35,701 bases of DNA from Deferrisomatales bacterium (GTDB lineage Bacteria > Desulfobacterota > Deferrisomatia > Deferrisomatales > JACRMM01), in contig JAWSUI010000040.1 in assembly GCA_033551855.1 (NCBI GenBank), forward strand, positions 1 through 35,701, in the 5' to 3' direction. Each line of letters opens with the position of its first letter. The first letter of the stretch is position 1. Below the pieces are notes generated by a model. It had not been told where the DNA came from, made no database searches, and saw nothing but the letters and a program-made list of their open reading frames with translations. The translations under genes were made by a program, and so were the position numbers. Positions 2,046 through 35,068 of the stretch are shown in pieces.

Positions 2046-2111
2046 CCCGTATTCGAAGCGCCGGCATTCCCACTCTCCCGAGGCGCGAGGAGACTTGGTG
2101 TGGGCCGTCCG

Positions 2112-2272
2112 CTCCGGCAGGTCTTCTGGCTCGCGATTCATCCTCGGGGCCGCCTTCCCGGTCCGGCTGCGACCAGTGGCTCCGTGGCCCTTCGTCCTCG
2201 CATACAGCGGCGGGTCCGCGGGGGCTTCCCACCCCACTTCCCTTTTCAGCCCTCGCGGGCACCGGCGGACGT
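2112..2272 (-). ncRNA. Cobalamin (AdoCbl) riboswitch
   Basis: Minus strand reads ...ggtgcccgcgagggctgaaaagggaagtggggtgggaagccc...ccgccgctgta...gccactgg...gggaaggc...gagccagaagacctgcc, including the B12 box, directly upstream of a BtuB-like gene. Confidence 0.93.
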
Positions 2273-2293
2273 GCAGATTCGATTGTGAGCGGA

Positions 2294-5808: not shown

Positions 5809-5966
5809 GCGGAGTCCGGGAGCCCAGGAGAGCAGCCCCGCACCGCATCCACCGACCGGACGAGTCCGGCGCAAGCGGGTGCAGCCCGGCGCATAGGGGA
5901 CTGCCGGGACACTTCCTCGAATGGCCGCGGGTTGCGGGGCGAAACGCAGGGGTTCCCGGACTCCGC
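5809..5966. repeat. 17-bp inverted-repeat-bounded element
   Basis: gcggagtccgggagccc (5809-5825) pairs with gggttcccggactccgc (5950-5966), 16/17 plus one G-U. A similar arm lies at 2362-2380. Confidence 0.55.
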
Positions 5967-6005
5967 TTGCGGACCGGCCGGTGGATCCATGCTCCCCGCC
6001 CCCGC

Positions 6006-6035
6006 TTGACATCGCCCATTCTCGCGGTCTACTTC
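6006..6035 (+). promoter_or_regulatory. Putative sigma70 promoter of the peptide-rSAM locus
   Basis: TTGACA at 6006-6011, 18-nt spacer, weak -10 TACTTC. Confidence 0.4.
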
Positions 6036-6114
6036 GCTTCTCGCCGGCAGACGACGGAGCCCTGCGGACCCGGACGCCCATCCATCCACCCCATCCTCAG
6101 AGGAGGGCCGTACC

Positions 6115-6237
6115 ATGCGCAAGGTCCTAGACCAGAAGACTCTGGAACGGGAAGCCGCGTTTTGGCGTGCAGTGAAGAAGGCAACCGAACAGGTGCCGAT
6201 CAGGCTTTGCCACAAGTGAAAGAGCTGAAAGAGCTAG
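6115..6237 (+). CDS. Putative selenocysteine-containing RiPP precursor peptide (40 aa, C32-x2-U35-x2-U38)
   Basis: Perfect RBS AGGAGG at 6101-6106, ATG 6115, MRKVLDQKTLEREAAFWRAVKKATEQVPIRLCHK[TGA]KS[TGA]KS[TAG]. SECIS-like hairpin directly after the stop; rSAM/SPASM gene 87 nt downstream. Absent from the ORF track. Confidence 0.78.
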
Positions 6238-6255
6238 GGTTGCCGGTCCGGCAAC
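6238..6255 (+). promoter_or_regulatory. Candidate SECIS element (3' of the stop codon)
   Basis: ggttgccg-gtc-cggcaac: 7-bp stem with apical GU, closely resembling the E. coli fdhF SECIS core GGUUGCAGGUCUGCACC. The loop G is +27 and +18 nt from the two UGAs. Confidence 0.72.
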
Positions 6256-6324
6256 GAGACGGTTAGATCCCGCACCCCGGGTCCGCAGACCCGATTCCTC
6301 CGAGACGCCGAGGCGATCGAGGCC

Positions 6325-7392
6325 GTGAGCCGTCACCCTTCCTTCGACACACCCCTTGCGCCTGCCGCCGGGCAAGAGTTCTTTGTCCAGTGGCACGTGA
6401 CGGAGCGGTGCAACCTGCGCTGCCTGCACTGCTACCAGCTCGGCTGCGCCGGCGAGGAGCTGCCCCTCGCTGAGCTCCTGTCGGTGGTGGACGAGGTGGA
6501 CGACGCGTTGGCTGCGTGGTCCGACGCGTACGGCATCTCCTTCGCGCCGAGGTTCCAGGTCACCGGCGGCGAGCCGTTGCTGTGCGAGGACCTGTGGGAC
6601 GTCTTGGCGCGCTTGCGCACCGGGGGCTTCCCGACCCACCTCCTCTCCAACGGCACACTGGTGGACCGGGACACGGCGGAGCGGCTGGCAGGGCTCGGGG
6701 TGGCGGGCGTCCAGGTCAGCCTGGAGGGGCCGGAGGCGGTCCACGACGCGATCCGGGGCCCAGGGAGCTTCCGCAAGGCGCTGCGCGGGGTGGACCGCCT
6801 GCTGAGGGCCGGGGTGCGGATCGACCTCAACGTGACGCTCTCCGCGCGCAACGCCGACCGGGTCGATGAGTTGATCGACATCGCACAGGCCGCGGGGGTG
6901 CCGCGGATCGGCTTTTCCCGCTTGGTGCCCTACGGCCGGGGAGCCGAGCTTCTGGGCGAGACCCTGCCTCCCGACCGCGTCCGCGGGCTCTACGAACGGC
7001 TGCGGTCCGTCCAGGTCCCGGGACTCGCGATCGGCACCGGGGACCCCTTGGCCGCCCAATTGGACCTGGGCGGAACCGACGGGGCCGGCTGCACGGCCGT
7101 GGGCGGCTGCGCGGCCGGCGTTTCCGGGATCACCATCCTGCCCGACGGCACCCTGCACCCCTGCCGGCGCCTGCCGATCCCCATCGGCAACCTCCGGACC
7201 GACTCCTTGCGGGAGGTCTGGGCGACCTCGCCCGTCCTCGCCGCACTCCGGGACAAAGGGCGCTATCCCGGCCGGTGCGGGTCGTGCGAGCGCTGGGCGG
7301 CCTGCCGCGGCTGCCGCGCGATCGCCTATGCCGTCACCCTGGCGCGCGGCCGCGGCGACTTTCTCGCCGACGACCCCCAGTGTTTCCTCTAG
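6325..7392 (+). CDS. Radical SAM/SPASM domain protein, probable peptide maturase
   Basis: QWHVTERCNLRCLHCY (CxxxCxxC), TGGEP, QVSLEG; SPASM domain GCAAG...PDGTLHPC...IGNL...CGSCERWAACRGC...DPQC. Confidence 0.93.
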   Translation: MSRHPSFDTPLAPAAGQEFFVQWHVTERCNLRCLHCYQLGCAGEELPLAELLSVVDEVDDALAAWSDAYGISFAPRFQVTGGEPLLCEDLWDVLARLRTGGFPTHLLSNGTLVDRDTAERLAGLGVAGVQVSLEGPEAVHDAIRGPGSFRKALRGVDRLLRAGVRIDLNVTLSARNADRVDELIDIAQAAGVPRIGFSRLVPYGRGAELLGETLPPDRVRGLYERLRSVQVPGLAIGTGDPLAAQLDLGGTDGAGCTAVGGCAAGVSGITILPDGTLHPCRRLPIPIGNLRTDSLREVWATSPVLAALRDKGRYPGRCGSCERWAACRGCRAIAYAVTLARGRGDFLADDPQCFL

Positions 7393-7476
7393 CTAGGCCT
7401 CGGCATTGGGCAGACGGGCGGCCCCGCGGAGTCGCCGCTTCGTCGGCGACGAACCGTGAACAGGGGAGGTGAGCCC

Positions 7477-8016
7477 ATGGCGAAATGGATGCTCGACCCG
7501 GAACACACCTCGGCCACGTTCGAGGTCCGCCACATGATGGTCACCTGGGTGACCGGCCGATTCGATCGGATCACCGGCACACTCCTGTTCGATCCGACGG
7601 ACGTCGGGGCCTCGTCGGTCGCGGTGGAGATCGACGCGTCGTCGATCTCCACCGGCGTCGACCGGCGCGACGAGGATCTGCGGAGCGACAACTATCTGGA
7701 CGTGAAGCGATTCCCGGCGATCACCTTCCGCAGCACCGGTGTCGAGTCCGCCGGGCTGGACCACTGCCAGGTGCACGGCGACCTCACCATCCACGGCGTC
7801 ACGAGGCCCGTCCTCCTGGACGTGCGCTTCTGTGGGCCCTCTCACTTTCAGGACGACGACCGCCGGTACACGACCTACGGGTTTCGCGCCAAGACCCAGA
7901 TCAACCGAGAGGACTTCGGCATCCGGTCCAACCTGGAGATCGAGAACGGAGGCTTCATGGTGGGAAAGCACCTCTTCCTCACCATCGACGCGGAAGCGGA
8001 CTTGCTGGACGACTGA
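7477..8016 (+). CDS. YceI family protein (no signal peptide)
   Basis: WMLDPEHTSATFEVRHMMVTWVTGRF, SISTGVDRRDEDLRS, GDLTIHGVTRPV, INREDFGI. Confidence 0.92.
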   Translation: MAKWMLDPEHTSATFEVRHMMVTWVTGRFDRITGTLLFDPTDVGASSVAVEIDASSISTGVDRRDEDLRSDNYLDVKRFPAITFRSTGVESAGLDHCQVHGDLTIHGVTRPVLLDVRFCGPSHFQDDDRRYTTYGFRAKTQINREDFGIRSNLEIENGGFMVGKHLFLTIDAEADLLDD

Positions 8017-10209: not shown

Positions 10210-11871
10210 TTGATCGAGGTCGAACTTCTCCGCCAACTCGGGCTGATCCTCCTCGCGGCGGCCGGGGCGCTGCTTCTGGCCCGGCTCGTGCGCGTCCCCT
10301 CCATCGTCGCCTACCTCGTGGCGGGGGTCGCCCTGGGGCCGGCGACCGGCCTCTTGCCGGTCTCCGGGCCGCTGGACCTCATCGCCCACGTGGGGATCGC
10401 CCTACTCCTCTTCCTGGTGGGGCTCGAGCTCAGCCTGGACAAGATCCGCGACTTGGGGAAGGTGGCGGTGGTGGCCGGGCTCGGGCAGGTTGGCTTTACC
10501 GCAGTAGGCGGGTTCGCACTGGCGTGGGCCCTGGGCTTCTCCCCCATGGAAGCCCTGTTCCTCGGCGTGGCCCTCACCTTCAGCAGCACGGTCGTGGTGG
10601 TCAAGCTCCTGGACCAGAAACGGGAGCTCGACACGCTGTACGGCCGGATCTCGGTGGGGATCTTCCTGGTGCAGGACCTGGTGGTGATCGTGTTCCTCAC
10701 CCTGCTCGCCGGTCTCGGGCGCCACGAGCAGGCCGACCCGCTGGTGATCGCCTCCGGCGTTCTCCTCGCCTTCGGGGGCATGGCGGTCCTCTTGGTCACT
10801 GCGCTCTTGGCCTCGCGCCACGTGCTGCCGCGCCTCTTCGGGTGGGCCGCCTCCTCTTCTCAGACCTTGTTCGTGTGGAGCCTGGCGTGGTGCTTCCTGT
10901 TCGTCGTCGCGGCCGAGAAGCTCCAGCTTTCCCTGGAGATCGGCGCCTTCCTCGCCGGCATCAGCTTGGCCCAGCTTCCGTACAACCACGACTTGCGGCG
11001 GCGGGTCCACCCGCTCATGAACTTCTTCATCGCCGTCTTCTTCGTCACCCTGGGGGCCCGCATGGAGATGGCGGCCGTCCTCGGCCACTGGCCTGCGGCG
11101 GGGGTTCTGGCGCTGTTCGTGCTGATCGGCAACCCCTTCATTTTTCTATGGATCATTGCCCGGATGGGCTACGGCGAGCGCACGGCCTTCCTGACCAGCG
11201 TGACCGTGGCCCAGATCAGCGAGTTCTCCTTCATCTTCGCCGGCATGGGCCTCGCCTCCGGGTTGATCGACGAGGCGGTGCTGGCGGTGGTGACGGCGGT
11301 CGGGTTCGCCACCATCGCCGCGTCGGCCTTCATGATCCTCTACAACCACTCTCTCTACACGTGGGTTAAGAGGATGGGACTGCTGCGTCCGTTCCGCGCC
11401 CGCCAGGAGACGCCGGAGGAGGCGGTCCGGACCGTGGGAGGCCCCTCCGGGCACGTCATCGTGGTGGGGATGAACGCGCTGGGTCGCCGCCTGGTGGAGG
11501 CGCTGTGCAGCCGCGGGGTGCCGGTAGTGGCCGTGGACACCGACCCGGCAAAGCTCGCCGGCCTGCCCTGCCCCGGCCTGATGGGAGACACCGAGTACGC
11601 CGGCGTGCTGGAGGAGGCCGGCCTGGCCAAGGCGCGCCTTCTGATCTCGGCCCTGAAGATCGAGGATGCCAACAACCTGCTCGCCTACCGCAGTCACCGG
11701 GCGGGGGTGCCGGCGGCCATCCACCTCTTCGACGCTTCGGTGCGCGGGGACCTCCAGGAGTTGGGGGTCGAGTTCCCCATGAGCTCCAAGGGCTCGGGGC
11801 TCAAGCGCGTTCTGGGCGCGCTGGAAAAAGAAGGAGTGCTCCGGCCGTGGTCGGAATCGCCGTCCTCCTGA
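10210..11871 (+). CDS. CPA2 cation:proton antiporter with C-terminal TrkA-N/RCK domain (KefB/KefC-like)
   Basis: GIALLLFLVGLELS, FSSTVVVVKLL, GIFLVQD, EIGAFLAG, AQISEFS; RCK domain GHVIVVGMNALG. Confidence 0.92.
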   Translation: MIEVELLRQLGLILLAAAGALLLARLVRVPSIVAYLVAGVALGPATGLLPVSGPLDLIAHVGIALLLFLVGLELSLDKIRDLGKVAVVAGLGQVGFTAVGGFALAWALGFSPMEALFLGVALTFSSTVVVVKLLDQKRELDTLYGRISVGIFLVQDLVVIVFLTLLAGLGRHEQADPLVIASGVLLAFGGMAVLLVTALLASRHVLPRLFGWAASSSQTLFVWSLAWCFLFVVAAEKLQLSLEIGAFLAGISLAQLPYNHDLRRRVHPLMNFFIAVFFVTLGARMEMAAVLGHWPAAGVLALFVLIGNPFIFLWIIARMGYGERTAFLTSVTVAQISEFSFIFAGMGLASGLIDEAVLAVVTAVGFATIAASAFMILYNHSLYTWVKRMGLLRPFRARQETPEEAVRTVGGPSGHVIVVGMNALGRRLVEALCSRGVPVVAVDTDPAKLAGLPCPGLMGDTEYAGVLEEAGLAKARLLISALKIEDANNLLAYRSHRAGVPAAIHLFDASVRGDLQELGVEFPMSSKGSGLKRVLGALEKEGVLRPWSESPSS

Positions 11872-13406
11872 TCGCAGCTTCCGCCGGCTTCACCCTGTCC
11901 CGGTGGCTGAGGGTCCCGGTCCTGCCCATGCTGCTGGTGGCAGGCTTCGCCCTCTCCGCGGCCGGCCTGCTCCCGGAGGAGAACTTGGCCGAGACGGTGG
12001 TGCTGGGGGTCACCTTCCTCCTCTTCGTCACCGGCATCGAGCTCAACTTCGATCGGGTCCGCCACCAGAAGAGGGCGGCGCTCTGGGTGGGGATCCTGCA
12101 GTTCCTGGTCCTGGGGGCGGCCGGTTGGGGGGCGGGATGGGCCCTGGGCTACCCCCCGGAGTCCTTGCTGTACCTGGCGCTGGCGTTGAGCGCGAGCTCC
12201 ACCCTGGTCGTGGTCCAGCTTCTCCAGAGCCGCCAACAGCTCTTCGAGCCCTTCGGCCGGCTGGTGGTGGGCGTGCTCCTGATCCAGGATCTGCTGGTGG
12301 TGGTGCTGATTCCGGTACTGCTGCGACTCCCCGGGGGGGCGGCGGACGTGGCCGTGGGTGTGGGCGGGGTGGGCCTGCTGATGGCCCTCACCTGGGTGTG
12401 CCGGAGCCGGCTCTTCCCCCGCGCCCTCCTGGCCGTTCAGGAGGACGGCGAGACCTTGCTGGTCCTGATGCTCGCCGGCCTGTTCGTCTACCTCGGCATC
12501 GCCGACTTCCTGGGCCTTCCCCTCATGGTCGGCGCTTTCCTCGCCGGCCTCGCCTTCTCGAGCTTCCCGTTGAGCGGGGTCTTGCGCGCCCAGCTGCGTT
12601 CCGTCTCGGACTTCTTCCTCGCGGTCCTGTTCACCACCTTGGGGGGGCTGGTGGCGTTGCCCTCTCTGCGGGAGGCGACCGGCGCGCTGGTCCTGGCCCT
12701 GGTGGTGATCGTCCTGACGCCCCTCATCGTGACCCTGATCGCCGAGCGCTTCGGCCTGGCCACGCGGTCCGCGATCGAGAGCGGCCTGCTCCTGTCCCAG
12801 ACCAGCGAGCTGTCCTTGGTGGTGGGCATCCAGGCCCTGGCCGAGGCACGGATCGGCGAGCAGCTCTTCTCGACCATCGTCCTGGTCACCGCCCTGACCA
12901 TGACCCTCACCCCCCTGCTCGCCACCGACCGCATGAGCCGATGGCTGATGCACCTCCACCCGCTGCGCCACCGCCCCCGCCTGGAACGCCCGATGCGCGG
13001 GCACGTGCTCCTTCTCGGATGCGGGGAGTCCGGCATGGTCCTCGTCGAGACCTTCCTCGTGTTCGGCCATGAAGTGCTCGTGATCGACGACGATCCGGTG
13101 GTGATCAGGGGGCTGCAGGAGGCGGAGGTGCCCTGCCTGCGGGGGGACGCCTCCGACCTCGAGCTGCTGGAGACGGCGGGGGCTCGCCGGGCGTCGGTGA
13201 TCGTCTCCACGCTGCGCCGCGCTCGGGACAACGAGACGCTCCTGCGCCACGCCGCCGGGGTTCCCACTCTGGTGCGGGTGTTCGACGACTCCGAGGCGGA
13301 GGCGGTGCACGCCCTGGGGGGCACGCCCGTCGTCCTCGCCGATGCCACCGCGGACGACCTGCTGGCGACGCTCGAACAGGAGGGGCTCCTGGGACGCACC
13401 GGCTGA
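11847..13406 (+). CDS. Second CPA2 cation:proton antiporter with RCK domain
   Basis: FLLFVTGIELN, SSTLVVVQLL, GVLLIQD, GAFLAG, SQTSELS; RCK domain GHVLLLGCGESG. GTG 11847 follows AGGAG and overlaps the upstream gene. Confidence 0.9.
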   Translation: MVGIAVLLIAASAGFTLSRWLRVPVLPMLLVAGFALSAAGLLPEENLAETVVLGVTFLLFVTGIELNFDRVRHQKRAALWVGILQFLVLGAAGWGAGWALGYPPESLLYLALALSASSTLVVVQLLQSRQQLFEPFGRLVVGVLLIQDLLVVVLIPVLLRLPGGAADVAVGVGGVGLLMALTWVCRSRLFPRALLAVQEDGETLLVLMLAGLFVYLGIADFLGLPLMVGAFLAGLAFSSFPLSGVLRAQLRSVSDFFLAVLFTTLGGLVALPSLREATGALVLALVVIVLTPLIVTLIAERFGLATRSAIESGLLLSQTSELSLVVGIQALAEARIGEQLFSTIVLVTALTMTLTPLLATDRMSRWLMHLHPLRHRPRLERPMRGHVLLLGCGESGMVLVETFLVFGHEVLVIDDDPVVIRGLQEAEVPCLRGDASDLELLETAGARRASVIVSTLRRARDNETLLRHAAGVPTLVRVFDDSEAEAVHALGGTPVVLADATADDLLATLEQEGLLGRTG

Positions 13407-27408: not shown

Positions 27409-28344
27409 TTAGGTCCGGCTCGCGAGGACGAAATCGCTCAGTTCATCGAGCCGGTGCGCCCAGAAGATGACCATGGGGGCGGCCTGTGCCGCCTCGATAT
27501 CCTCCGCCCTGAAGAGCCCCTGGACGGCGACGGCTGGAACCAACTGGTCGATGCCGTAGCGACTCCCCCAGCGCCGCGCCGCCTGAGCGGCCTCCTGGAG
27601 GCGCGCGGCGCCCACCTTCTCCGCATCGGTGGCCACGCACCTCAAGGCCAGAGTCCGGCCGTCGACGAGGCCAACCAATAGATCGGCTTCGTCCTCCCCG
27701 ACCAGGCAGAGATCATCAGAAAACTCCCCCGGTGCGGGCGCTTCCCGCTGGAGGTCTTGCACCTTCCAGGCGGAGCGCGGCTGCATCCTTGCGTCCAGCA
27801 GTCCCTTGCGGGCCTCGCTGGCGAGCGTTCCCCGCTCCGTCCGACGGTAGGCGATTTCGGTCTGTCGGCTGGCCGTCAGCGCGGCGGTGATCAGGATCGC
27901 CTCTTCTTCCTCGGCGAGTCGCGCCGGGCGGCGCTCGCGCAGCCATCGAAAGCGCACCGGATCAAGGAACCCGGCGATCACCGCGCGCAGCTCATTGGTA
28001 AGCGGCGGGTGATCGAGGAAGAGAGCCGCGTCGAGCGGAGCGCCAACCAGCGCAGCCAATTCCGCCTTGGTGACCGGCGGGGCGGCAAGGCAGCACAGGA
28101 TGTCGAGCTGCGCCTCGTCGCGCAGCAGGTCGGCAATCTGGGTAGGCCCATTGGAGGATTCGAGTAGCTGGGGCAGGCTGTGGATCAGGCTCCTACAGCC
28201 CTGCATTGCTTCCTGGAAGGCTTCGGGGTAGGTCTGCTGGGCGAGCTGGAAGCGGTGTCCGCAAAACTCCCTCCATGCTTCACCGACCTCGCTTCGGATC
28301 TGCTCCCGGGACCATTGCACGGCACCTCTAGGCCATTGAGACAT
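27409..28344 (-). CDS. XamI-family restriction endonuclease-like protein, degenerate active site
   Basis: LAAPPVT, LDPVRFRWL, APAPGEF, ADLLVGLVDGRTLAL, QLVPAVAVQG, AQ...IFWAHRL match my recollection of the XamI family. The expected ECK motif reads RCV. Confidence 0.72.
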   Translation of the reverse strand: MSQWPRGAVQWSREQIRSEVGEAWREFCGHRFQLAQQTYPEAFQEAMQGCRSLIHSLPQLLESSNGPTQIADLLRDEAQLDILCCLAAPPVTKAELAALVGAPLDAALFLDHPPLTNELRAVIAGFLDPVRFRWLRERRPARLAEEEEAILITAALTASRQTEIAYRRTERGTLASEARKGLLDARMQPRSAWKVQDLQREAPAPGEFSDDLCLVGEDEADLLVGLVDGRTLALRCVATDAEKVGAARLQEAAQAARRWGSRYGIDQLVPAVAVQGLFRAEDIEAAQAAPMVIFWAHRLDELSDFVLASRT

Positions 28345-28543: not shown

Positions 28544-28942
28544 TCAGAAGGGAGGCGCATGGTAGGCGAAGATCGCGCTTGCGCCCTCCGGAAGCTCCAG
28601 ATCCAGAGAGGCGCGAAACTGCATCATCTGTTTGCCATGGCGCTTGGACCTCAGGGCGGGAACCTGGATCTGCTTCTCCGCGATCGGCGAGCCGTCGGGC
28701 CGCAGAAAGAGCACATCCACATGTCCGGGCATCCGCACCCGGATCGGTCGCTCCAGACTCCCGCTGACCAGCACCTTGCCATCCTGACGTATCGCCTGAG
28801 CTTTGGACACCGTGACCGGGGACGTTTTCCGGGCCTCTACCGGGACGTGCTGCGCAAGAGTGGCTGTGGGCCGCGGTGCCGCACATCCGCCGGCGAGCAG
28901 CGAGAGGACGAGAGCCGCCGGGATAAAAATCTTCATCTTCAT
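28544..28942 (-). CDS. Hypothetical lipoprotein
   Basis: MKMKIFIPAALVLSLLAGG-C lipobox; start overlaps the czcA stop; contains GHVD and a C-terminal His. Confidence 0.8.
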   Translation of the reverse strand: MKMKIFIPAALVLSLLAGGCAAPRPTATLAQHVPVEARKTSPVTVSKAQAIRQDGKVLVSGSLERPIRVRMPGHVDVLFLRPDGSPIAEKQIQVPALRSKRHGKQMMQFRASLDLELPEGASAIFAYHAPPF

Positions 28943-31900
28943 ACGTTCTCCTGTGCAAGGGGTTGCTTTGCGTGTTTCGGCGCCACCAGCAGATAAAGGG
29001 CAGGCAAAACAAAAAGAGTAAGAAGGGTCGAGGTCAGCACGCCGCCGATGACGACCGTCGCCAGCGGGCGTTGCACTTCAGCGCCGACCCCGGTGGAGAG
29101 CGCCATCGGGAGAAAGCCCGCAGCGTCGGTGATCGCCGTGGCGAGGACCGGAATCAGGCGTCGGCGGGCGCCACCCGTGACCGCCGCGAAGAGCTCGTCT
29201 CCCCGTTCCAGATTCTGCCGGATGGCGGTGACCAAAACCTGTCCGTTGAGAACGGCGATGCCGGAGAGGGCGATGAAGCCGATGGCGGCGCTGACGCTGA
29301 AGGGGATGCCGCGCAGCCACAGGGCAAACACCCCCCCCACGGCGGCGAAGGGGATGCCGGTGTAGATGATCAGAACGTGGCGCAGATTCTTGAGGCTGAG
29401 ATACAGAAGGAGGAAGATCAGCGCCAGGGTAATGGGGACGACGACCGCCAGGCGCTTCTGCGAACGCTCCAGATTCTCGAATTGCCCGCCCCATTCGATG
29501 AGATAGCCGTCGGGGAGCTTCACCTCGGCGGCGATCTTCTGCCGCGCCTCGGCGACGAAGGAGGCGATGTCGCGCTCGCGCACGTTCGTCTGCACCTTGA
29601 TCAAGCGCCGCCCCCACTCCCGGTTGATGGTCGAGGGGCGGTCCACCTCGGTGAGCTCGGCCAGGGCGCCGAGCGGCACCACCGCGCCGGTGCGGGTCGG
29701 GATGAGGGTTTCGCGCAGCGCCTCGACGTCGGTGCGCTGGGCGTCGGGGAGGCGCACCACCAGCGGGAAGGAGCGCTCCCCCTCGAAAACCTCTCCGGCT
29801 TTGAGCGAACCGACGGCGGCGATCATGTCGAGCACCTCGCGGGCGGCGACGCCGTGGCGGGCGATGGCCGCCTGATCGATGCGCACCTGCAGCGTCGGCT
29901 GGCCAGTGATCTGTTCGACCGCAACATCGCTCGCCCCGCGGATGTCGCTGAGCAGGTGTTCGATTTCTCCCGCCAGCACCACCAGATTGCCGAAATCCTC
30001 TCCATAGATCTTGATCCCCACGTCGGCGCGGATGCCCGAGAGCATCTCGTTGGTGCGCAGTTCGATGGGCTGGGTGATGACCGTGCGGATGCCGGGAAGC
30101 CCGGCCATCGCTCCCTCCACCAGCTTCTCAAGTTCCCCCTGGTTTGCGGCCCTGGTCCACTGATCCCGCGGATGCAGGGCCATGAAGAGATCGGTCAGTT
30201 CCGTCCCCATCGGATCGGTGGCGACCTCGGCGCTGCCGATGCGGCTCCAGACGAATTTGATCTCGTCCGGAAATTTCTCCAGCAGCAACTTCTCCAGGTG
30301 CGTGTTATAGGCGACCGACTCCTCGATGGAGACTCCCGCCAGGCGCACCACGCTAGCGACCAGCGACCCTTCGCCCATGCGGGGGAGGAATTCCCCGCCG
30401 AGTCGCAGGGCGAGCCCCCCGGTGCCGGCCAGCAGAATGAGGACGACGGCGAAGAGCGCCCCCTTGCGCCGCAGCACCGGGAGCAGCACGGCCCCGTACC
30501 CCTTCCGCAGCGCCCCCTCCACCCGTCCTTCGCGTTCGCGCAGGCGTTTGGGCAAAAAGCGCTCGGAAAGGACCGGCGTCAGGAAGACCGCCACCAGCAG
30601 TCCGCCGATCAGGGCAAAGATGAAGGTCCAGGCCATCGGCTTGAACATCTTCCCCTCCACCCCCTGCAGGGTCAGCACCGGCAGGAAGACGAGAAGGATG
30701 ATCAGCATGCCGAAGAAGATGGGGCGCACCACCTCCTTGCTCGAATGGGCGATACAGGCGGTGCGCTCGGCGGCGGTGAGCGGGCGGCCGAGTTTCATCT
30801 GCCGCTCGGTAAGCCGGCGCAGGTTGGCCTCGGTCATCACCACCGAGCCGTCGACCAGGATGCCGAAGTCAATGGCCCCCAAAGACAGGAGGCTCGCCGC
30901 GATCCCCATGCCGTGCATCCCCAGCGCGGCAAAGAGCATCGAAAAGGGAATTGCGGCGGCGACGATGATGCCGGCGCGCAGGTTGCCGAGGAGCAGAAAG
31001 AGGACGGCGATGACGAGCAGGGCGCCCAGCAGGAGGTTGTGCTGCACCGTGTCGATGACCTGATTGACCAGATCGGTGCGGTCGTAGACGACCTCTAGCG
31101 TCACATCGGCCGGCAGGACAGTCCTTACTCGCTCCAGGCGCTCCTTCAGGGCGGTGGTAACGGCGCGGCTGTTCTCTCCCATGAGCATGAAGCCGAGGCC
31201 GAGGACGACCTCCCCGTCCCCTTGCGCCGTAACCGCGCCAAGGCGCAGTTCGTGGCCGAAGCGCACCTCGGCGACGTCGCGGATGCGCACCGGCGCGCCG
31301 CCGTGGGCGGCGATGACGACGTTACCGACTTCGGCCAAGCCCGTCACCTGCCCGAGGCCGTGCACCAGCATCGTCTGCCCGCCGGAGGTGACCTGGCCGC
31401 CGCCGACATTGGCGTTGTTCTCTTCCAGGGCGGTGAAAACATCCTTGAGCGTGAGGCCGTACTTGACCAGCAGCTCGGGAGCCACGATCACCTGATACTG
31501 CCGCTCCAAACCGCCCCAGGAGTTGACCTCGGCCACGCCGGCGGCCTTGCGCATCTCGGGTTTGACGACCCAGTCGTGCAGTGTGCGCAGTTCATCCAGG
31601 GAGCGAGTCTTAGAGCGCAGGACATAATGGAAGACCTCGCCTAGGCCGGTGGAGATCGGCCCCATCTCCGGGCGCTCGATCCCCGGCGGCAGGGCCACGC
31701 CGGCCAGGCGCTCCATGACGAGCTGGCGCGAGTCGTAGATCGGCATGGCGTCGGAAAAAGTGGCGACGACCTGGGAGAGGCCGAATTTGGAAATCGAGCG
31801 GACACTCTGCAGTTCGGGCAGACCGGCGATGGCGAGTTCCACCGGCAGCGTGATCTGCCGCTCGATCTCCTCCGGGCCCAGGTTGGGGGCGACGGTATTG

Positions 31901-32046
31901 ATCTGCACCTGGACAGGGGTGGTGTCGGGGAAAGCGTCGACCGGCAGATTCACCAGAGCCCAGGTGCCAAAGCTCAGGGCGGCGGCAAAGAGCAGAACCG
32001 TCAGCAGGCGGTTCCTCAGGACAATATCGATCAGGCGTTCAAGCAT
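28939..32046 (-). CDS. czcA: CzcA/CusA family heavy-metal efflux RND permease (CzcA-type)
   Basis: LPVDAFPDTTPVQVQINT, GPISTGLGE, TM4 GAIDFGILVDGSVVMTE (DFG-type, not CusA AIAVG-type), GAEVQRPLATVVIGG. Confidence 0.95.
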   Translation of the reverse strand: MLERLIDIVLRNRLLTVLLFAAALSFGTWALVNLPVDAFPDTTPVQVQINTVAPNLGPEEIERQITLPVELAIAGLPELQSVRSISKFGLSQVVATFSDAMPIYDSRQLVMERLAGVALPPGIERPEMGPISTGLGEVFHYVLRSKTRSLDELRTLHDWVVKPEMRKAAGVAEVNSWGGLERQYQVIVAPELLVKYGLTLKDVFTALEENNANVGGGQVTSGGQTMLVHGLGQVTGLAEVGNVVIAAHGGAPVRIRDVAEVRFGHELRLGAVTAQGDGEVVLGLGFMLMGENSRAVTTALKERLERVRTVLPADVTLEVVYDRTDLVNQVIDTVQHNLLLGALLVIAVLFLLLGNLRAGIIVAAAIPFSMLFAALGMHGMGIAASLLSLGAIDFGILVDGSVVMTEANLRRLTERQMKLGRPLTAAERTACIAHSSKEVVRPIFFGMLIILLVFLPVLTLQGVEGKMFKPMAWTFIFALIGGLLVAVFLTPVLSERFLPKRLREREGRVEGALRKGYGAVLLPVLRRKGALFAVVLILLAGTGGLALRLGGEFLPRMGEGSLVASVVRLAGVSIEESVAYNTHLEKLLLEKFPDEIKFVWSRIGSAEVATDPMGTELTDLFMALHPRDQWTRAANQGELEKLVEGAMAGLPGIRTVITQPIELRTNEMLSGIRADVGIKIYGEDFGNLVVLAGEIEHLLSDIRGASDVAVEQITGQPTLQVRIDQAAIARHGVAAREVLDMIAAVGSLKAGEVFEGERSFPLVVRLPDAQRTDVEALRETLIPTRTGAVVPLGALAELTEVDRPSTINREWGRRLIKVQTNVRERDIASFVAEARQKIAAEVKLPDGYLIEWGGQFENLERSQKRLAVVVPITLALIFLLLYLSLKNLRHVLIIYTGIPFAAVGGVFALWLRGIPFSVSAAIGFIALSGIAVLNGQVLVTAIRQNLERGDELFAAVTGGARRRLIPVLATAITDAAGFLPMALSTGVGAEVQRPLATVVIGGVLTSTLLTLFVLPALYLLVAPKHAKQPLAQENV

Positions 32047-32115
32047 GAAAAAATCTCCGCAAGAGGATTGCAGGGCAGCTTGAGGGGCTACCGCATTGAC
32101 AAGGGGACAGCGCCA

Positions 32116-33612
32116 TCAATGATCGGCGCAGGACGCCCCGAGCCGTGCCCGCAGCACCTCGGACTTGAGGGAGAAGGCTTGACCCGTGACGACCCGGTCG
32201 TTGGCGCGGAGCCCCTCGCGAATGATCACTGCCCCTTGCGAGCGGCGCCCTGCCGTCACCCGACGCAGTTCAAATAGGTCGTCCTCCAGGCGCACGAAGA
32301 CAAAAGGGTTGCCGTCCACCGTCTGCAGGGCATCGGCGGGGACGGCAAGAGTCCCCCCGGCCGCTTTGCCCGTCGCCTGCACCTGCCCGAAAAGGCCGCT
32401 GCGCAGCAGGCCGTCGCCGTTGTCCACCTCCGCCAGAACCTTGAGCATGCGGGTCCGCTCATCGAGGGCGGCGGCGATCCAGAAGACCTTCCCCTGGAAG
32501 GCTCGCCCGGGGAGCCCGGAAAAGGAGGCGACGACGTTCAGCCCGGGATGGACGTCGAGAAGAGCATCCTCGGGGATGGACGTCTCGACCCAGACGGTAC
32601 CCAAATCGGCCAGAGTGAAGAGGGTGCTCCCCACAGAAACCGTTTCACCGGTGACCGCGGCGCGTTCGATTACAGTGCCGGCAAAGGGGGCGCGGATCGG
32701 CAGGGCCGAGCCGGCACTGCCTTGGGCCAGACCGAAGTCCTGCATCTGCCGGCGGGTGCGGATGGCGGCGCTTTCAGCCTGTCGGTATTCGGCTTCGGCC
32801 TGCTGGAAGTCGTGGCGGGAGGTGATCCCCTTCTCCAGCAGATCCTGCTCCCGCAGGTAGACGGCTTCGGCAAGGGCGCGGCGGCTTTCCGCCGCCGCCA
32901 GTTCAGCCCGCAGCCCTGCCGCTTCTGACGAGGCGATCTCGGCCAGGATCTGCCCCTTGGCGACTTTCTCCCCCAGCCGGACGTTCACCTTCTGCACGGT
33001 TCCAGTGGCCAGGGCGGAGAGGCTCGCCAGGCGGTCGCGATTGAAAACGACCTGTCCCGGCCAGGTCGCGCCCCCTTCGCCGGCGGGCAGCGGGGTGGCG
33101 GTGGCGATACCGATCCGCCCGGCCGTCTCGGGCGCCGCCAGGCGGACCTTCATCCCTTCTCCGGGCTGGAGACGGGAGACGAGATCGGGCTGGCAAAGTG
33201 CATCCTCGTTTTCCGGGACGTTGTGCTCCGGGCAGATCTCGTCCCCGACTTCTCCACCGGAGTGATCGTGCCCGGCATGAGGGTCTTTCTTCCGGGGGGC
33301 CGAGGCGTGCGCGGCGTGATCATCGCCCTCTTCGTCATCGTGATGCTCGTCAGGGGTGACCTTGTCGTCGGCGAATAGGGCGTCTAGGTCTTCATCCTCT
33401 TCACCGCTGTGGTCGCGCGGTTCCCTGGCAGCCTCCCCGGCGTGTCCATGCGGATTTTCCTTCGCTTCTTCTTTTCCGTGAGCGGGTCCGTCATGGCCCG
33501 CCTCGGCGGAGTGGGAGGGGCCGGCAAGGGTATAGGTTCCCCAACCCACGCCGGCGGCCGCAGTCAGGAGGAGCAGGGAAAGGATCAGCTTCTTGGCGCT
33601 CTTTTTATTCAT
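32116..33612 (-). CDS. czcB: RND membrane fusion protein with His/acidic-rich N-terminal extension
   Basis: N-terminal TM, His-rich linker (DEHHDDEEGDDHAAH...PHAGHDHSG), IRAPFAGTV, LFTLADL, LDERTR, LAVPADA. Confidence 0.92.
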   Translation of the reverse strand: MNKKSAKKLILSLLLLTAAAGVGWGTYTLAGPSHSAEAGHDGPAHGKEEAKENPHGHAGEAAREPRDHSGEEDEDLDALFADDKVTPDEHHDDEEGDDHAAHASAPRKKDPHAGHDHSGGEVGDEICPEHNVPENEDALCQPDLVSRLQPGEGMKVRLAAPETAGRIGIATATPLPAGEGGATWPGQVVFNRDRLASLSALATGTVQKVNVRLGEKVAKGQILAEIASSEAAGLRAELAAAESRRALAEAVYLREQDLLEKGITSRHDFQQAEAEYRQAESAAIRTRRQMQDFGLAQGSAGSALPIRAPFAGTVIERAAVTGETVSVGSTLFTLADLGTVWVETSIPEDALLDVHPGLNVVASFSGLPGRAFQGKVFWIAAALDERTRMLKVLAEVDNGDGLLRSGLFGQVQATGKAAGGTLAVPADALQTVDGNPFVFVRLEDDLFELRRVTAGRRSQGAVIIREGLRANDRVVTGQAFSLKSEVLRARLGASCADH

Positions 33613-34961
33613 GGGTTATCACTCCTGGACGGTTGCGGAAAGTCGATAGCGGTGGCTGTCGGAGCGACAGAGGTCCCCAGGAGCCGCTCCATTTCGGAGG
33701 CGGCGCGGTGGAACGCCCGCAGGGCCTCAAGATACTGCTCCTGCACTGCGACCAGCGTTCGTTGGGCATCGAGGACATCGAGGAGGCCGAACTTGCCGGC
33801 ACGGTAGCCGTATTCGGCGGATTCCAGGGCCAGCTTTGAGGCGGGAAGGATGTCGTCGCGCAGCGCCCCGGCTTCCGCGCGGGCGGCGCTCATCTTCTGG
33901 TGGGCGGCGGCGAGGGCGGCTTTGGCCTGCAAAAGCGCGCTGCGCTCTTCAGCGCGGGCCTGCGCCGCGCGGCTGCGCGCGGCGGCAATCGTCCCCTGGT
34001 TGCGGTCGAAGAGGGGCAGAGGGATCGAAACCCCCAGGATCAGGGCCGTGTCGTCGCTCTCGCGCAGATAGCGGGCGCCGACACCGATGTCCAGATCGGG
34101 AATGGGGCGAGCCTCCTCCATGCGGATGGCCCGGCGGCGGCGCTCGCTTTCGGCGACCCGCCGGACCATCTGCGGGCTTTCGGTCAGCAGCCTGTCCAGC
34201 TCCGCCTGCTCCGGCGGGGAAAAGAGGTCCGACAGGTCTCCGGCTGCGAAGCCGAAATCGGCCTCTTCACGCCCCATCAGGGCAGCCAGGGCGGCGCGGG
34301 CAGCGGCAAGCTCGCGGTGCGCCTTTTCCAGGGCGATCTGCTGCTCGCGCACCAGGATACGCGGCCGGATCGTTTCGGTCTGCGCACCTCTGCCGGCGGC
34401 GACGCGTTCCTCGGCCGCGCCAAACACTCGCGTCGCGAGATCGAGCAGCTCCTCTGACAGGCGCAGGCGCTCCTGTGCCGCAAGCACGGCGAAGAAAGCA
34501 TTAGAGGTGCGCGCAAGAAGGTCGGCCTTTACCACATCGAAGTCGCTTTGGGCGACGCCCGTCTCCGCTTCGGCCAAGTGACGGCGCAGGTCGCGCTTTT
34601 TCCCCAGCTCCACCTTTTGGCTAATCGAAAGGGTGCTTTCCGCAGCGTCGGTTCGGGAGAACGGACCGCTGCCGAAGACGTTTTCGGCTTCGAGGGAGAG
34701 CAGAGGGTTCGGGCGCAGCCCAGCCTGGTGAGCTTCGGCCTCACGGCCGCGGATCTCCAGGGAGTAGAATTCCAACTCGGGATTGTGGCGCACAGCCTGG
34801 GAAAGCGCCTGCTGCAAGGTAAGCGCTGCGCCCTGTTCTTCGGCCATGGCAGCGACCGGGGGAGTAACCGCAGCTTGGGCCGTGCCGGGCCCCCAGAGCG
34901 GGAGCAAAAGGATAAGTACACCAAGGATGAGCGCTTGATGGCGCGGCAGTACGTCCGACAT
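33609..34961 (-). CDS. czcC: TolC-family outer membrane efflux protein
   Basis: LTLQQAL...HNPEL, AGLRPNP, ISQKVELGKKR, SIPLPLFDRNQG, GYRAGKFGLLDVLDAQR. ATG 34961 follows GGAGGT. Confidence 0.93.
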   Translation of the reverse strand: MSDVLPRHQALILGVLILLLPLWGPGTAQAAVTPPVAAMAEEQGAALTLQQALSQAVRHNPELEFYSLEIRGREAEAHQAGLRPNPLLSLEAENVFGSGPFSRTDAAESTLSISQKVELGKKRDLRRHLAEAETGVAQSDFDVVKADLLARTSNAFFAVLAAQERLRLSEELLDLATRVFGAAEERVAAGRGAQTETIRPRILVREQQIALEKAHRELAAARAALAALMGREEADFGFAAGDLSDLFSPPEQAELDRLLTESPQMVRRVAESERRRRAIRMEEARPIPDLDIGVGARYLRESDDTALILGVSIPLPLFDRNQGTIAAARSRAAQARAEERSALLQAKAALAAAHQKMSAARAEAGALRDDILPASKLALESAEYGYRAGKFGLLDVLDAQRTLVAVQEQYLEALRAFHRAASEMERLLGTSVAPTATAIDFPQPSRSDNP

Positions 34962-35068
34962 GCTAGCGGACCTCCGGAAATGGATGGAAAAGGATGTAGT
35001 AAGGCGCAAACCCCGGCGGCACTAAGCCGCGGGAAGAGGGAGGAACGCCCGGAAATGGGCGGGGAGGA

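Follow-up and report, generated by a model that had tools for sequence, protein, structure and literature searches.

A short peptide gene with two in-frame TGA codons and an adjoining radical SAM/SPASM gene: a candidate second family of selenium peptides

Can a peptide gene that is crossed twice by TGA be a real gene, and if it is, what would the enzyme encoded directly behind it do with the product? The question is raised by a locus in a 35,701-nucleotide (nt) stretch of DNA from a Deferrisomatales bacterium (GenBank assembly GCA_033551855.1, contig JAWSUI010000040.1, positions 1 to 35,701, forward strand). The whole stretch is called the window here, and positions are those of the window. 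A preliminary description made from the letters alone had pointed to a short open reading frame (ORF) with two TGA codons, followed by a gene for a radical S-adenosylmethionine (SAM) enzyme with a SPASM domain, and had proposed that they form a new system for making a modified selenocysteine (Sec) peptide. We find that the peptide and the enzyme are conserved together as a two-gene cassette, and that the peptide very probably carries two selenocysteines. We take the pair for a second family, distinct from the SbtA/SbtM system, in which a selenium peptide has a radical SAM maturase.

The layout of the locus is given in Table 1. With TGA read as Sec (U), the gene encodes MRKVLDQKTLEREAAFWRAVKKATEQVPIRLCHKUKSUKS, and Cys32, Sec35 and Sec38 stand in an exact i, i+3, i+6 register. 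Apart from small corrections, this agrees with the preliminary description and its 40-residue peptide, whose AGGAGG ribosome-binding site, SECIS-like hairpin (SECIS, selenocysteine insertion sequence) and CxxxCxxC-plus-SPASM enzyme 87 nt downstream were likewise recovered. Each Sec codon opens one unit of an exact 9-nt tandem repeat, TGA-AAG-AGC. The 24-nt pattern of the core occurs once in the 4.24-Mb genome, and a reversed-pattern control does not occur in it at all. A scan of 5850-7500 for promoters and terminators found nothing; a perfect TTGACA lies at 6005-6010 (+), some 105 nt before the peptide gene starts, with no acceptable -10 hexamer after it.

Table 1. Positions of the features at the peptide-enzyme locus and of the neighboring gene
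Feature	Position	Strand	Remarks
Shine-Dalgarno sequence GAGGAGG (includes AGGAGG)	6100..6106	+	ATG 8 nt downstream; read from sequence
Peptide gene, 40 codons and TAG	6115..6237	+	Translation with both TGAs as Sec
Leader-like part, residues 1-31			KEAAFW-type motif holding E13 and W17
Core, residues 32-40			C-H-K-U-K-S-U-K-S
Cys32 codon TGC	6208..6210	+	TGC in 30/35 copies, TGT in 5/35
First in-frame TGA, read as Sec35	6217..6219	+	Hairpin stem 19 nt and loop 25 nt downstream
Second in-frame TGA, read as Sec38	6226..6228	+	Hairpin stem 10 nt and loop 16 nt downstream
True stop TAG	6235..6237	+	In frame; ends the 40-residue peptide
SECIS-like hairpin, 6-bp stem, loop GGUCC	6239..6255	+	Just past the stop; present in 35/35 copies
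Second GC hairpin, 6-bp stem, 4-nt loop	6278..6293	+	Minimum-energy fold; site of a stem and T-run in many relatives
Radical SAM/SPASM enzyme, 355 residues, GTG start	6325..7392	+	87 nt after the peptide TAG
YceI-like gene, likely ATG at 7477	7456..8016	+	Pfam PF04264, 159 bits; partly conserved neighbor

A similarity search with the enzyme, limited to one genome per species, gave 38 loci, 35 of them at 48-59% identity; the others are two short fragments at contig ends and one relative at 29% identity. When the regions upstream of these enzymes were translated with TGA readthrough, a check proposed in the preliminary description, the same peptide was found directly upstream in 34 of the 38; both TGAs are retained, and neither TAA nor TAG was seen in place of either. 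The paired loci are labelled Nitrospirota, Thermodesulfovibrionales, Desulfobulbales, Syntrophorhabdales and Desulfotomaculum, and one carrier is the cultured Desulfotomaculum copahuensis LMa1 (L054). The exceptions are individual cases: one locus (L055) is cut at a contig end, one (L057) has the enzyme of 29% identity in a genome without the peptide, and two (L025 and L036) have the peptide and its hairpin elsewhere in the same genomes (L060 and L061). When 401 genomes from the phylum of the window were searched with the 24-nt core pattern, 19 of them matched, including the window's own, and the reversed control matched once. Outside the window there were 19 pattern matches, 17 of them true peptides and 2 due to chance, and all 17 true peptides have the conserved leader, the hairpin and an enzyme (52-58% identical) just downstream. 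No gene besides the pair is common to all loci, and no other gene recurs in more than 9 of 39. The locus is thus a recurrent real arrangement, more than a chance one.

Evidence for translation through both TGAs lies in the way the sequence around and after them varies. Codon counts refer to the 35 copies found through the enzyme, counts of stop codons, Shine-Dalgarno motifs and lengths to 53 family members, and residue invariance to 29 aligned members. Both TGAs are present in every copy. Each is followed by AAA or AAG for Lys, except in an outlier (L024), and at position 37 there are 26 copies with GGC, GGT, GGA or GGG and 9 with AGC or AGT. Most copies have Ser at position 40, through AGY in 18 and TCN in 9, and the rest have Thr, Gly, Ala or Cys. 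Two to four codons past the second TGA there is an in-frame stop, which is TAA in 31 members, TAG in 12 and TGA in 10; stop codons that interchange at a fixed place show that ribosomes get there. Where that stop is itself a TGA it most likely terminates, because it lies only 1-3 nt from the hairpin stem, too close for recoding. We infer from these patterns that Sec is inserted at both UGAs; a conserved in-frame UGA with coding constraint downstream of it, one of the criteria for a selenoprotein gene, is what the family presents.

The rest of the peptide is conserved as well. Residues E13, W17, C32, K34, U35, K36, U38 and K39 are invariant, a GGAG or GAGG motif precedes the start by 4-17 nt in 50 members, and the length is 40 or 41 residues in 47. 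The family consensus consists of a helical, leader-like part, MKK...KEAAFW...NPG, and a basic nine-residue core, C-[HRQ]-K-U-K-[GSEK]-U-K-[STAGE]. The outlier (L024:2831-2900) has the KEAAFW leader in no frame and no nearby stop, and its first and second TGAs are 11 nt and 2 nt from the hairpin; the gene may have a single Sec, or it may be in decay.

The hairpin just past the stop has a stem of at least 5 bp in all 35 copies, compared to 14.7% of 7000 shuffled sequences, and of at least 6 bp in 33, compared to 5.4% of the shuffles. Its pairs show compensatory base changes across the copies: the closing pair is C-G in 21, U-A in 11, A-U in 2 and G-C in 1, and the second pair is U-A in 30, C-G in 3, A-U in 1 and U-G in 1. 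In 32 of the 35 the loop opens with GG, most commonly as GGUC, which is also the loop of the Escherichia coli fdhF element. The onset of the stem is 9-12 nt past the second TGA in 33 copies, with or without an extra residue in the peptide, and 18-21 nt from the first UGA across the family. The bacterial SECIS consensus, as given in a 2026 review, is a small apical loop that opens with two G residues and is located 16-37 nt after the UGA, and both UGAs of the window, with the loop at 25 and 16 nt, fit it (PMC13188914).

These hairpin statistics were obtained from calls made on each sequence separately, with shuffle controls, in place of the pairing in a MAFFT alignment, where 53% of cells were paired in register compared to 79% after sliding by one column, the gaps being misplaced for loops of differing length. 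Rfam has neither a SECIS nor any other family at the locus, the only hits being two chance small nucleolar RNA matches with E values of about 7. Folded as a whole, the region 6200-6330 has no stability beyond that of its shuffles (z = 0.30), and only the local hairpins matter.

Between the two genes there is a second set of structures. An inverted repeat with a T-rich tail was found in 36 of 54 relatives by a crude test; the window has its own GC hairpin at this site, no T-run follows it, and the terminator scan was empty. With a stem and T-run between the genes, the relatives would make the peptide transcript in excess over that of the enzyme. Conservation extends to the 5' arm of this terminator-like stem, about 15-25 nt past the SECIS-like hairpin, which has the form GGCAGATAYGG or GGCGGATA in differently labelled lineages (e.g., L032, L041, L053, L062 and L076); a terminator needs less sequence conservation than this.

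The host has what it needs to make selenoproteins. Of the genes that the preliminary description had named for a check (selA, selB, selC and selD), the genome has selA (573 bits), selB (307 bits) and selD (367 bits), together with tRNA-Sec (70.9 bits), all above the cut-offs. Among 19 other peptide-carrying genomes, selA is above its cut-off in 18, the exception being a genome that is 90% complete. The host's selD gene, on another contig (L010:1531), is a selenoprotein gene in its own right, with a single in-frame TGA and, after it, a 7-bp stem whose loop opens with GG.

A form with cysteine for selenium was not found. The preliminary description had expected relatives with Cys codons aligned to the TGAs, and this expectation failed: a pattern made of the leader motif, C-x-K and Cys in place of the first TGA had no match in the 401 genomes, while as a control the same pattern with TGA recovered 47 of 54 known loci, among them 15 of the 17 from the 401-genome sample. 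An exhaustive profile search of 1.84 billion protein representatives gave 107 matches (clusters at 50% identity), and there was no Cys homolog among them; the only entry to span positions 35-40 is one in which TGA is read as Trp. Sec therefore appears to be obligate in this family and not interchangeable with Cys.

The way in which public collections represent the family is also informative. The profile of 29 peptides found 203 clusters in a collection of 5.8 billion proteins, and among the 120 of these that were listed, 99 are 34 residues long, i.e., they end at the first TGA, and 21 are longer; 7 of the 21, besides the Trp-read entry, were inspected, and they have extra N-terminal residues and still end in C-H-K. 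The 120 listed entries are named "hypothetical protein" or not at all, and one, with TGA called as Trp, covers the whole query. The public protein P0180 has both TGAs as Trp and overruns the real stop, an artifact of a genetic code in which TGA is Trp. A word search with the window peptide as a single sequence returned only its own 34-residue stub.

The enzyme has the radical SAM motif CxxxCxxC at residues 29-36 (6409-6432) and seven invariant SPASM cysteines within 7108-7383. Pfam matches are to PF04055 (73.3 bits; cut-off 29.5) and PF13186 (41.1 bits; cut-off 21.5), and no further Pfam domain was found in the 355 residues, a RiPP recognition element (RRE; RiPP, ribosomally synthesized and posttranslationally modified peptide) or PqqD included, as the preliminary description had thought. 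Ten cysteines are invariant in 36 aligned enzymes (C29, C33, C36, C262, C280, C318, C321, C327, C330 and C353), those of the SPASM part following the pattern CX12GX4C ... CX2CX5CX2C ... C. A set of seven SPASM cysteines would leave one auxiliary cluster fully ligated and the other with a free iron, an arrangement that has been described for PapB and Tte1186 (PMC10177961). An AlphaFold model of the enzyme (mean predicted local distance difference test score, 86) has SkfB, SuiB, PqqE, BlsE, anSME, CteB and ChlB as its best fold matches in the PDB. No NCBIfam family cut-off is reached: the scores are 173.7 bits for AhbD (cut-off 500), 168 for the ACGX-system enzyme (400) and 141.9 for SbtM (350), with 152.7 for NirJ2 and 142 for NirJ, for which the equivalog cut-off is at least 500.

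The closest known system is SbtA/SbtM (TIGR04081/TIGR04082), in which the Sec of a GGUG motif becomes a selenooxazole (PMC9204691, PMC11002830). That system likewise has a short Sec peptide with a SECIS just downstream and an adjoining radical SAM/SPASM gene, two Sec have been reported for it, and its hosts are anaerobes of the Desulfobacterota type (PMC9204691, PMC11002830, PMC13188914). The differences are nevertheless substantial. The peptides described here have K-U-K in a basic C-x2-U-x2-U core, compared to GGUG or SGUG in SbtA (PMC9204691, PMC13188914), and they are found in several differently labelled phyla. The alignment with the SbtM model, which has 516 positions, pairs enzyme residues 19-340 with positions 199-506, so that the N-terminal third of SbtM, about the first 198 positions, is absent; the preliminary description was right to call the enzyme short. 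The window peptide has no match in NCBIfam (June 2026 release) at E values up to 10, and TIGR04081 is matched by none of the 29 peptide members at E values up to 1. The NCBIfam matches that these 29 did give, e.g., SkfF in 5 members with a best E value of 0.029, are at chance level and were rejected. The comparison with the SbtA and SbtM hidden Markov models that the preliminary description had suggested thus upholds a distinct family, and because the defining features that were tested are lacking, we do not count the pair as a member of SbtA/SbtM. Its mode of action is plausibly similar, by analogy.

The literature points the same way. The 2026 review, which covers 119 selenoprotein families, enters SbtA/SbtM as "Selenobacteriocin" with the motif SGUG and 2 Sec, and its table has no entry with the present motif, the entries from Haft and Tolstoy 2025 (mSystems) included (PMC13188914). 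The review cites Haft and Tolstoy for many new selenoprotein families, and their models should be among those of the NCBIfam release used here. SbtA/SbtM is the only natural pairing of a Sec peptide with a radical SAM enzyme in the literature covered, in which Haft and Tolstoy 2025 is represented through that review table.

Two other groups of enzymes deserve comparison. The maturases of sactipeptides and ranthipeptides (CteB with SCIFF, PapB, Tte1186 and AlbA) share with the present enzyme the combination of radical SAM and seven-Cys SPASM domains and, by implication, an open site on auxiliary cluster 1, and CteB is among the fold matches of the model. The SCIFF system is likewise a two-gene cassette without a conserved exporter. 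These maturases have an N-terminal RRE and natural substrates with Cys only, whereas here there is no RRE and Sec would be both natural and obligate. PapB and Tte1186 can convert Sec-substituted substrates to selenoethers, with selenium on an iron of a three-Cys auxiliary cluster (PMC10177961). AhbD and NirJ, of heme and heme d1 synthesis, have the highest NCBIfam scores and resemble the enzyme in size, in having no RRE and in being found in sulfate reducers. The scores, however, are about one-third of the 500-bit cut-offs, there are no tetrapyrrole genes near the locus in the window, and nothing in their pathways corresponds to the strict linkage with a peptide gene.

Taken jointly, the comparative sequence data make it probable, in our judgment, that the family consists of a double-Sec peptide, one hairpin that recodes both UGAs and a dedicated radical SAM/SPASM enzyme without an RRE that acts on the peptide. 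SelB and tRNA-Sec would decode the two UGA codons as selenocysteine, directed at both by the one short hairpin past the real stop. The enzyme most likely uses the adjacent peptide as its substrate: the leader would dock on the enzyme, a selenolate or thiolate of the core would bind the open iron of auxiliary cluster 1, and the 5'-deoxyadenosyl radical would then take a hydrogen from a residue of the core. For the outcome we tentatively favor selenoether or thioether cross-links, as made by sactipeptide and ranthipeptide synthases, while holding this to be well short of certain and somewhat under an even chance. Oxidation at the beta-carbon of Sec or Cys, as by SbtM or anSME, is our second choice and somewhat unlikely, and what probability remains goes to something else. 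The product may act inside the cell, possibly with its leader kept, since no exporter or protease is conserved nearby. A fuller version, in which an obligate Sec family across anaerobic phyla uses one hairpin for two UGAs and an enzyme without an RRE to form a selenium cross-link or heterocycle, the product being an intracellular redox or metal(loid)-binding cofactor and not a secreted antibiotic, appears to us evenly balanced between right and wrong.

Other explanations of the same data have to be weighed. The peptide might end at the first TGA as 34 residues closing in CHK, in which case the conservation downstream would belong to untranslated RNA (an attenuator or terminator, for example) and Cys32 would be the only target. 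The 99 listed database entries of just this length agree with it, as do the terminator-like hairpin slightly further downstream in many relatives and the want of a Cys variant that would prove the TGAs to be sense codons. We nonetheless regard it as most improbable, since it leaves unexplained the restriction of variation past the TGAs to third positions, the switches of Ser between AGY and TCN, the fixed 9-nt register, the in-frame stop that swaps among TAA, TAG and TGA, the constant 9-12 nt to a GG-loop hairpin with or without an extra codon, and the selA genes of the other carriers. The hairpin spacing bears equally on the proposal that the first UGA is Sec and the second a stop, with a 37-residue product ending in CHKUKS: the stem keeps its distance from the second TGA in 33 of the 35 copies, K39 does not vary, the amino acid at position 40 is under constraint, and a real in-frame stop comes after it. 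The outlier L024, with its hairpin 11 nt past the first TGA and 2 nt past the second and no stop nearby, would suit such a product, but it is without the conserved leader and may be decaying; we consider a single Sec highly unlikely for the family.

It is also conceivable that the selenoprotein is no substrate at all; it could be a partner of the enzyme, a redox shuttle, a metal(loid) binder or a selenium donor, and the radical SAM enzyme would act elsewhere, e.g., on a tetrapyrrole. That the best NCBIfam scores are those of AhbD (174 bits) and NirJ2 (153 bits), that RRE, protease and exporter are all absent, that Sec is never Cys, a hint that selenium itself matters, and that the two unlinked peptide copies adjoin molybdopterin oxidoreductase genes would all be in keeping with such a role. 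Against this, the scores are far under the 500-bit family cut-offs, a conserved leader with a short core is the layout of radical SAM substrates, and a two-gene unit that stays this closely linked in different lineages is what precursors and their maturases typically form. A seven-Cys SPASM domain with an open site is, moreover, the form described for enzymes that bind Cys or Sec of a substrate (PMC10177961), and we hold a nonsubstrate role to be quite unlikely.

Several observations weigh against the interpretation as a double-Sec substrate with its own maturase. A single hairpin for two UGAs 9 nt apart is unusual, and the first UGA, at 18-21 nt from the stem, is beyond the E. coli optimum of about 11 nt between UGA and stem. 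Because there is no Cys homolog, the family lacks the classic Sec/Cys pairing, which usually serves as a supporting, though not a defining, criterion for a selenoprotein. On the side of the RiPP criteria, a conserved leader and short core beside a modifying enzyme are present, and an RRE or PqqD domain, a leader protease and an exporter are absent from the cluster; neither a protease nor an exporter is conserved nearby across the loci, so the product may not be a usual secreted RiPP. The enzyme itself is without an RRE, and its top NCBIfam scores are those of AhbD and NirJ-type tetrapyrrole enzymes, far below cut-offs. Peptide and enzyme are unlinked in two genomes (L025 and L036). The core pattern is absent from the 13 searched genomes of the window's own family and order, and the distribution of the cassette is patchy for that reason. 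A lookup of sequencing runs for the locus listed one DNA run and no RNA run.

The surroundings of the cassette differ among lineages. A YceI gene lies directly downstream of the radical SAM gene in the window and in 8 of the 38 related loci, which are labelled Desulfobulbales or Thermodesulfobacteriota. The Nitrospirota-labelled loci are without it, and several have a nitroreductase gene downstream instead; pentose-phosphate genes lie upstream of the peptide gene in 9 Nitrospirota-labelled loci. The unlinked peptide copies (L060:1501 and L061:1501) both adjoin a molybdopterin oxidoreductase gene (PF00384, PF01568 and PF04879), which runs in the same direction as the peptide gene in one and divergently in the other. 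A link between the peptide and such oxidoreductases was considered and rejected, as it is seen only at these two copies, and neither in the window nor among the gene clusters that recur in at least 5 loci. A major facilitator superfamily (MFS) transporter gene flanks the L061 peptide, and an MFS gene is also found two genes downstream in the window.

Further from the cassette, the window has a cobalamin riboswitch (100.7 bits) at 2099-2279 (-), at the 5' end of a TonB-dependent receptor gene (117-2237, -), which is likely to be a B12-regulated uptake gene. The true start of the receptor is probably further in, because the listed ORF start overlaps the riboswitch. Two consecutive fusions of a Na+/H+ exchanger with TrkA_N, of the Kef type, occupy 10210-11871 and 11505-13406 (+); the overlap of the listed ORFs exceeds 300 nt, which puts the start of at least one of them further downstream. 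At 28939-35009 (-) there is a resistance-nodulation-division (RND) efflux trio, consisting of an AcrB-family pump, a CusB/HlyD-type adaptor and an outer-membrane factor, and a weak match to a XamI-type restriction endonuclease adjoins this set at 27409-28344.

If the double-Sec reading is true, the family would be a second and far more widespread class of natural selenopeptides. It is invisible to gene callers, which stop at the first TGA, yet it forms 107 clusters at 50% identity and is spread over several lineages of sulfate- and metal-reducing anaerobes. It would offer a natural substrate for radical chemistry of the selenoether or selenazole type, as well as a natural test of how one bacterial SECIS past the stop codon can serve two UGAs close to each other. 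That selenium is never exchanged for sulfur points to a function specific to selenium.

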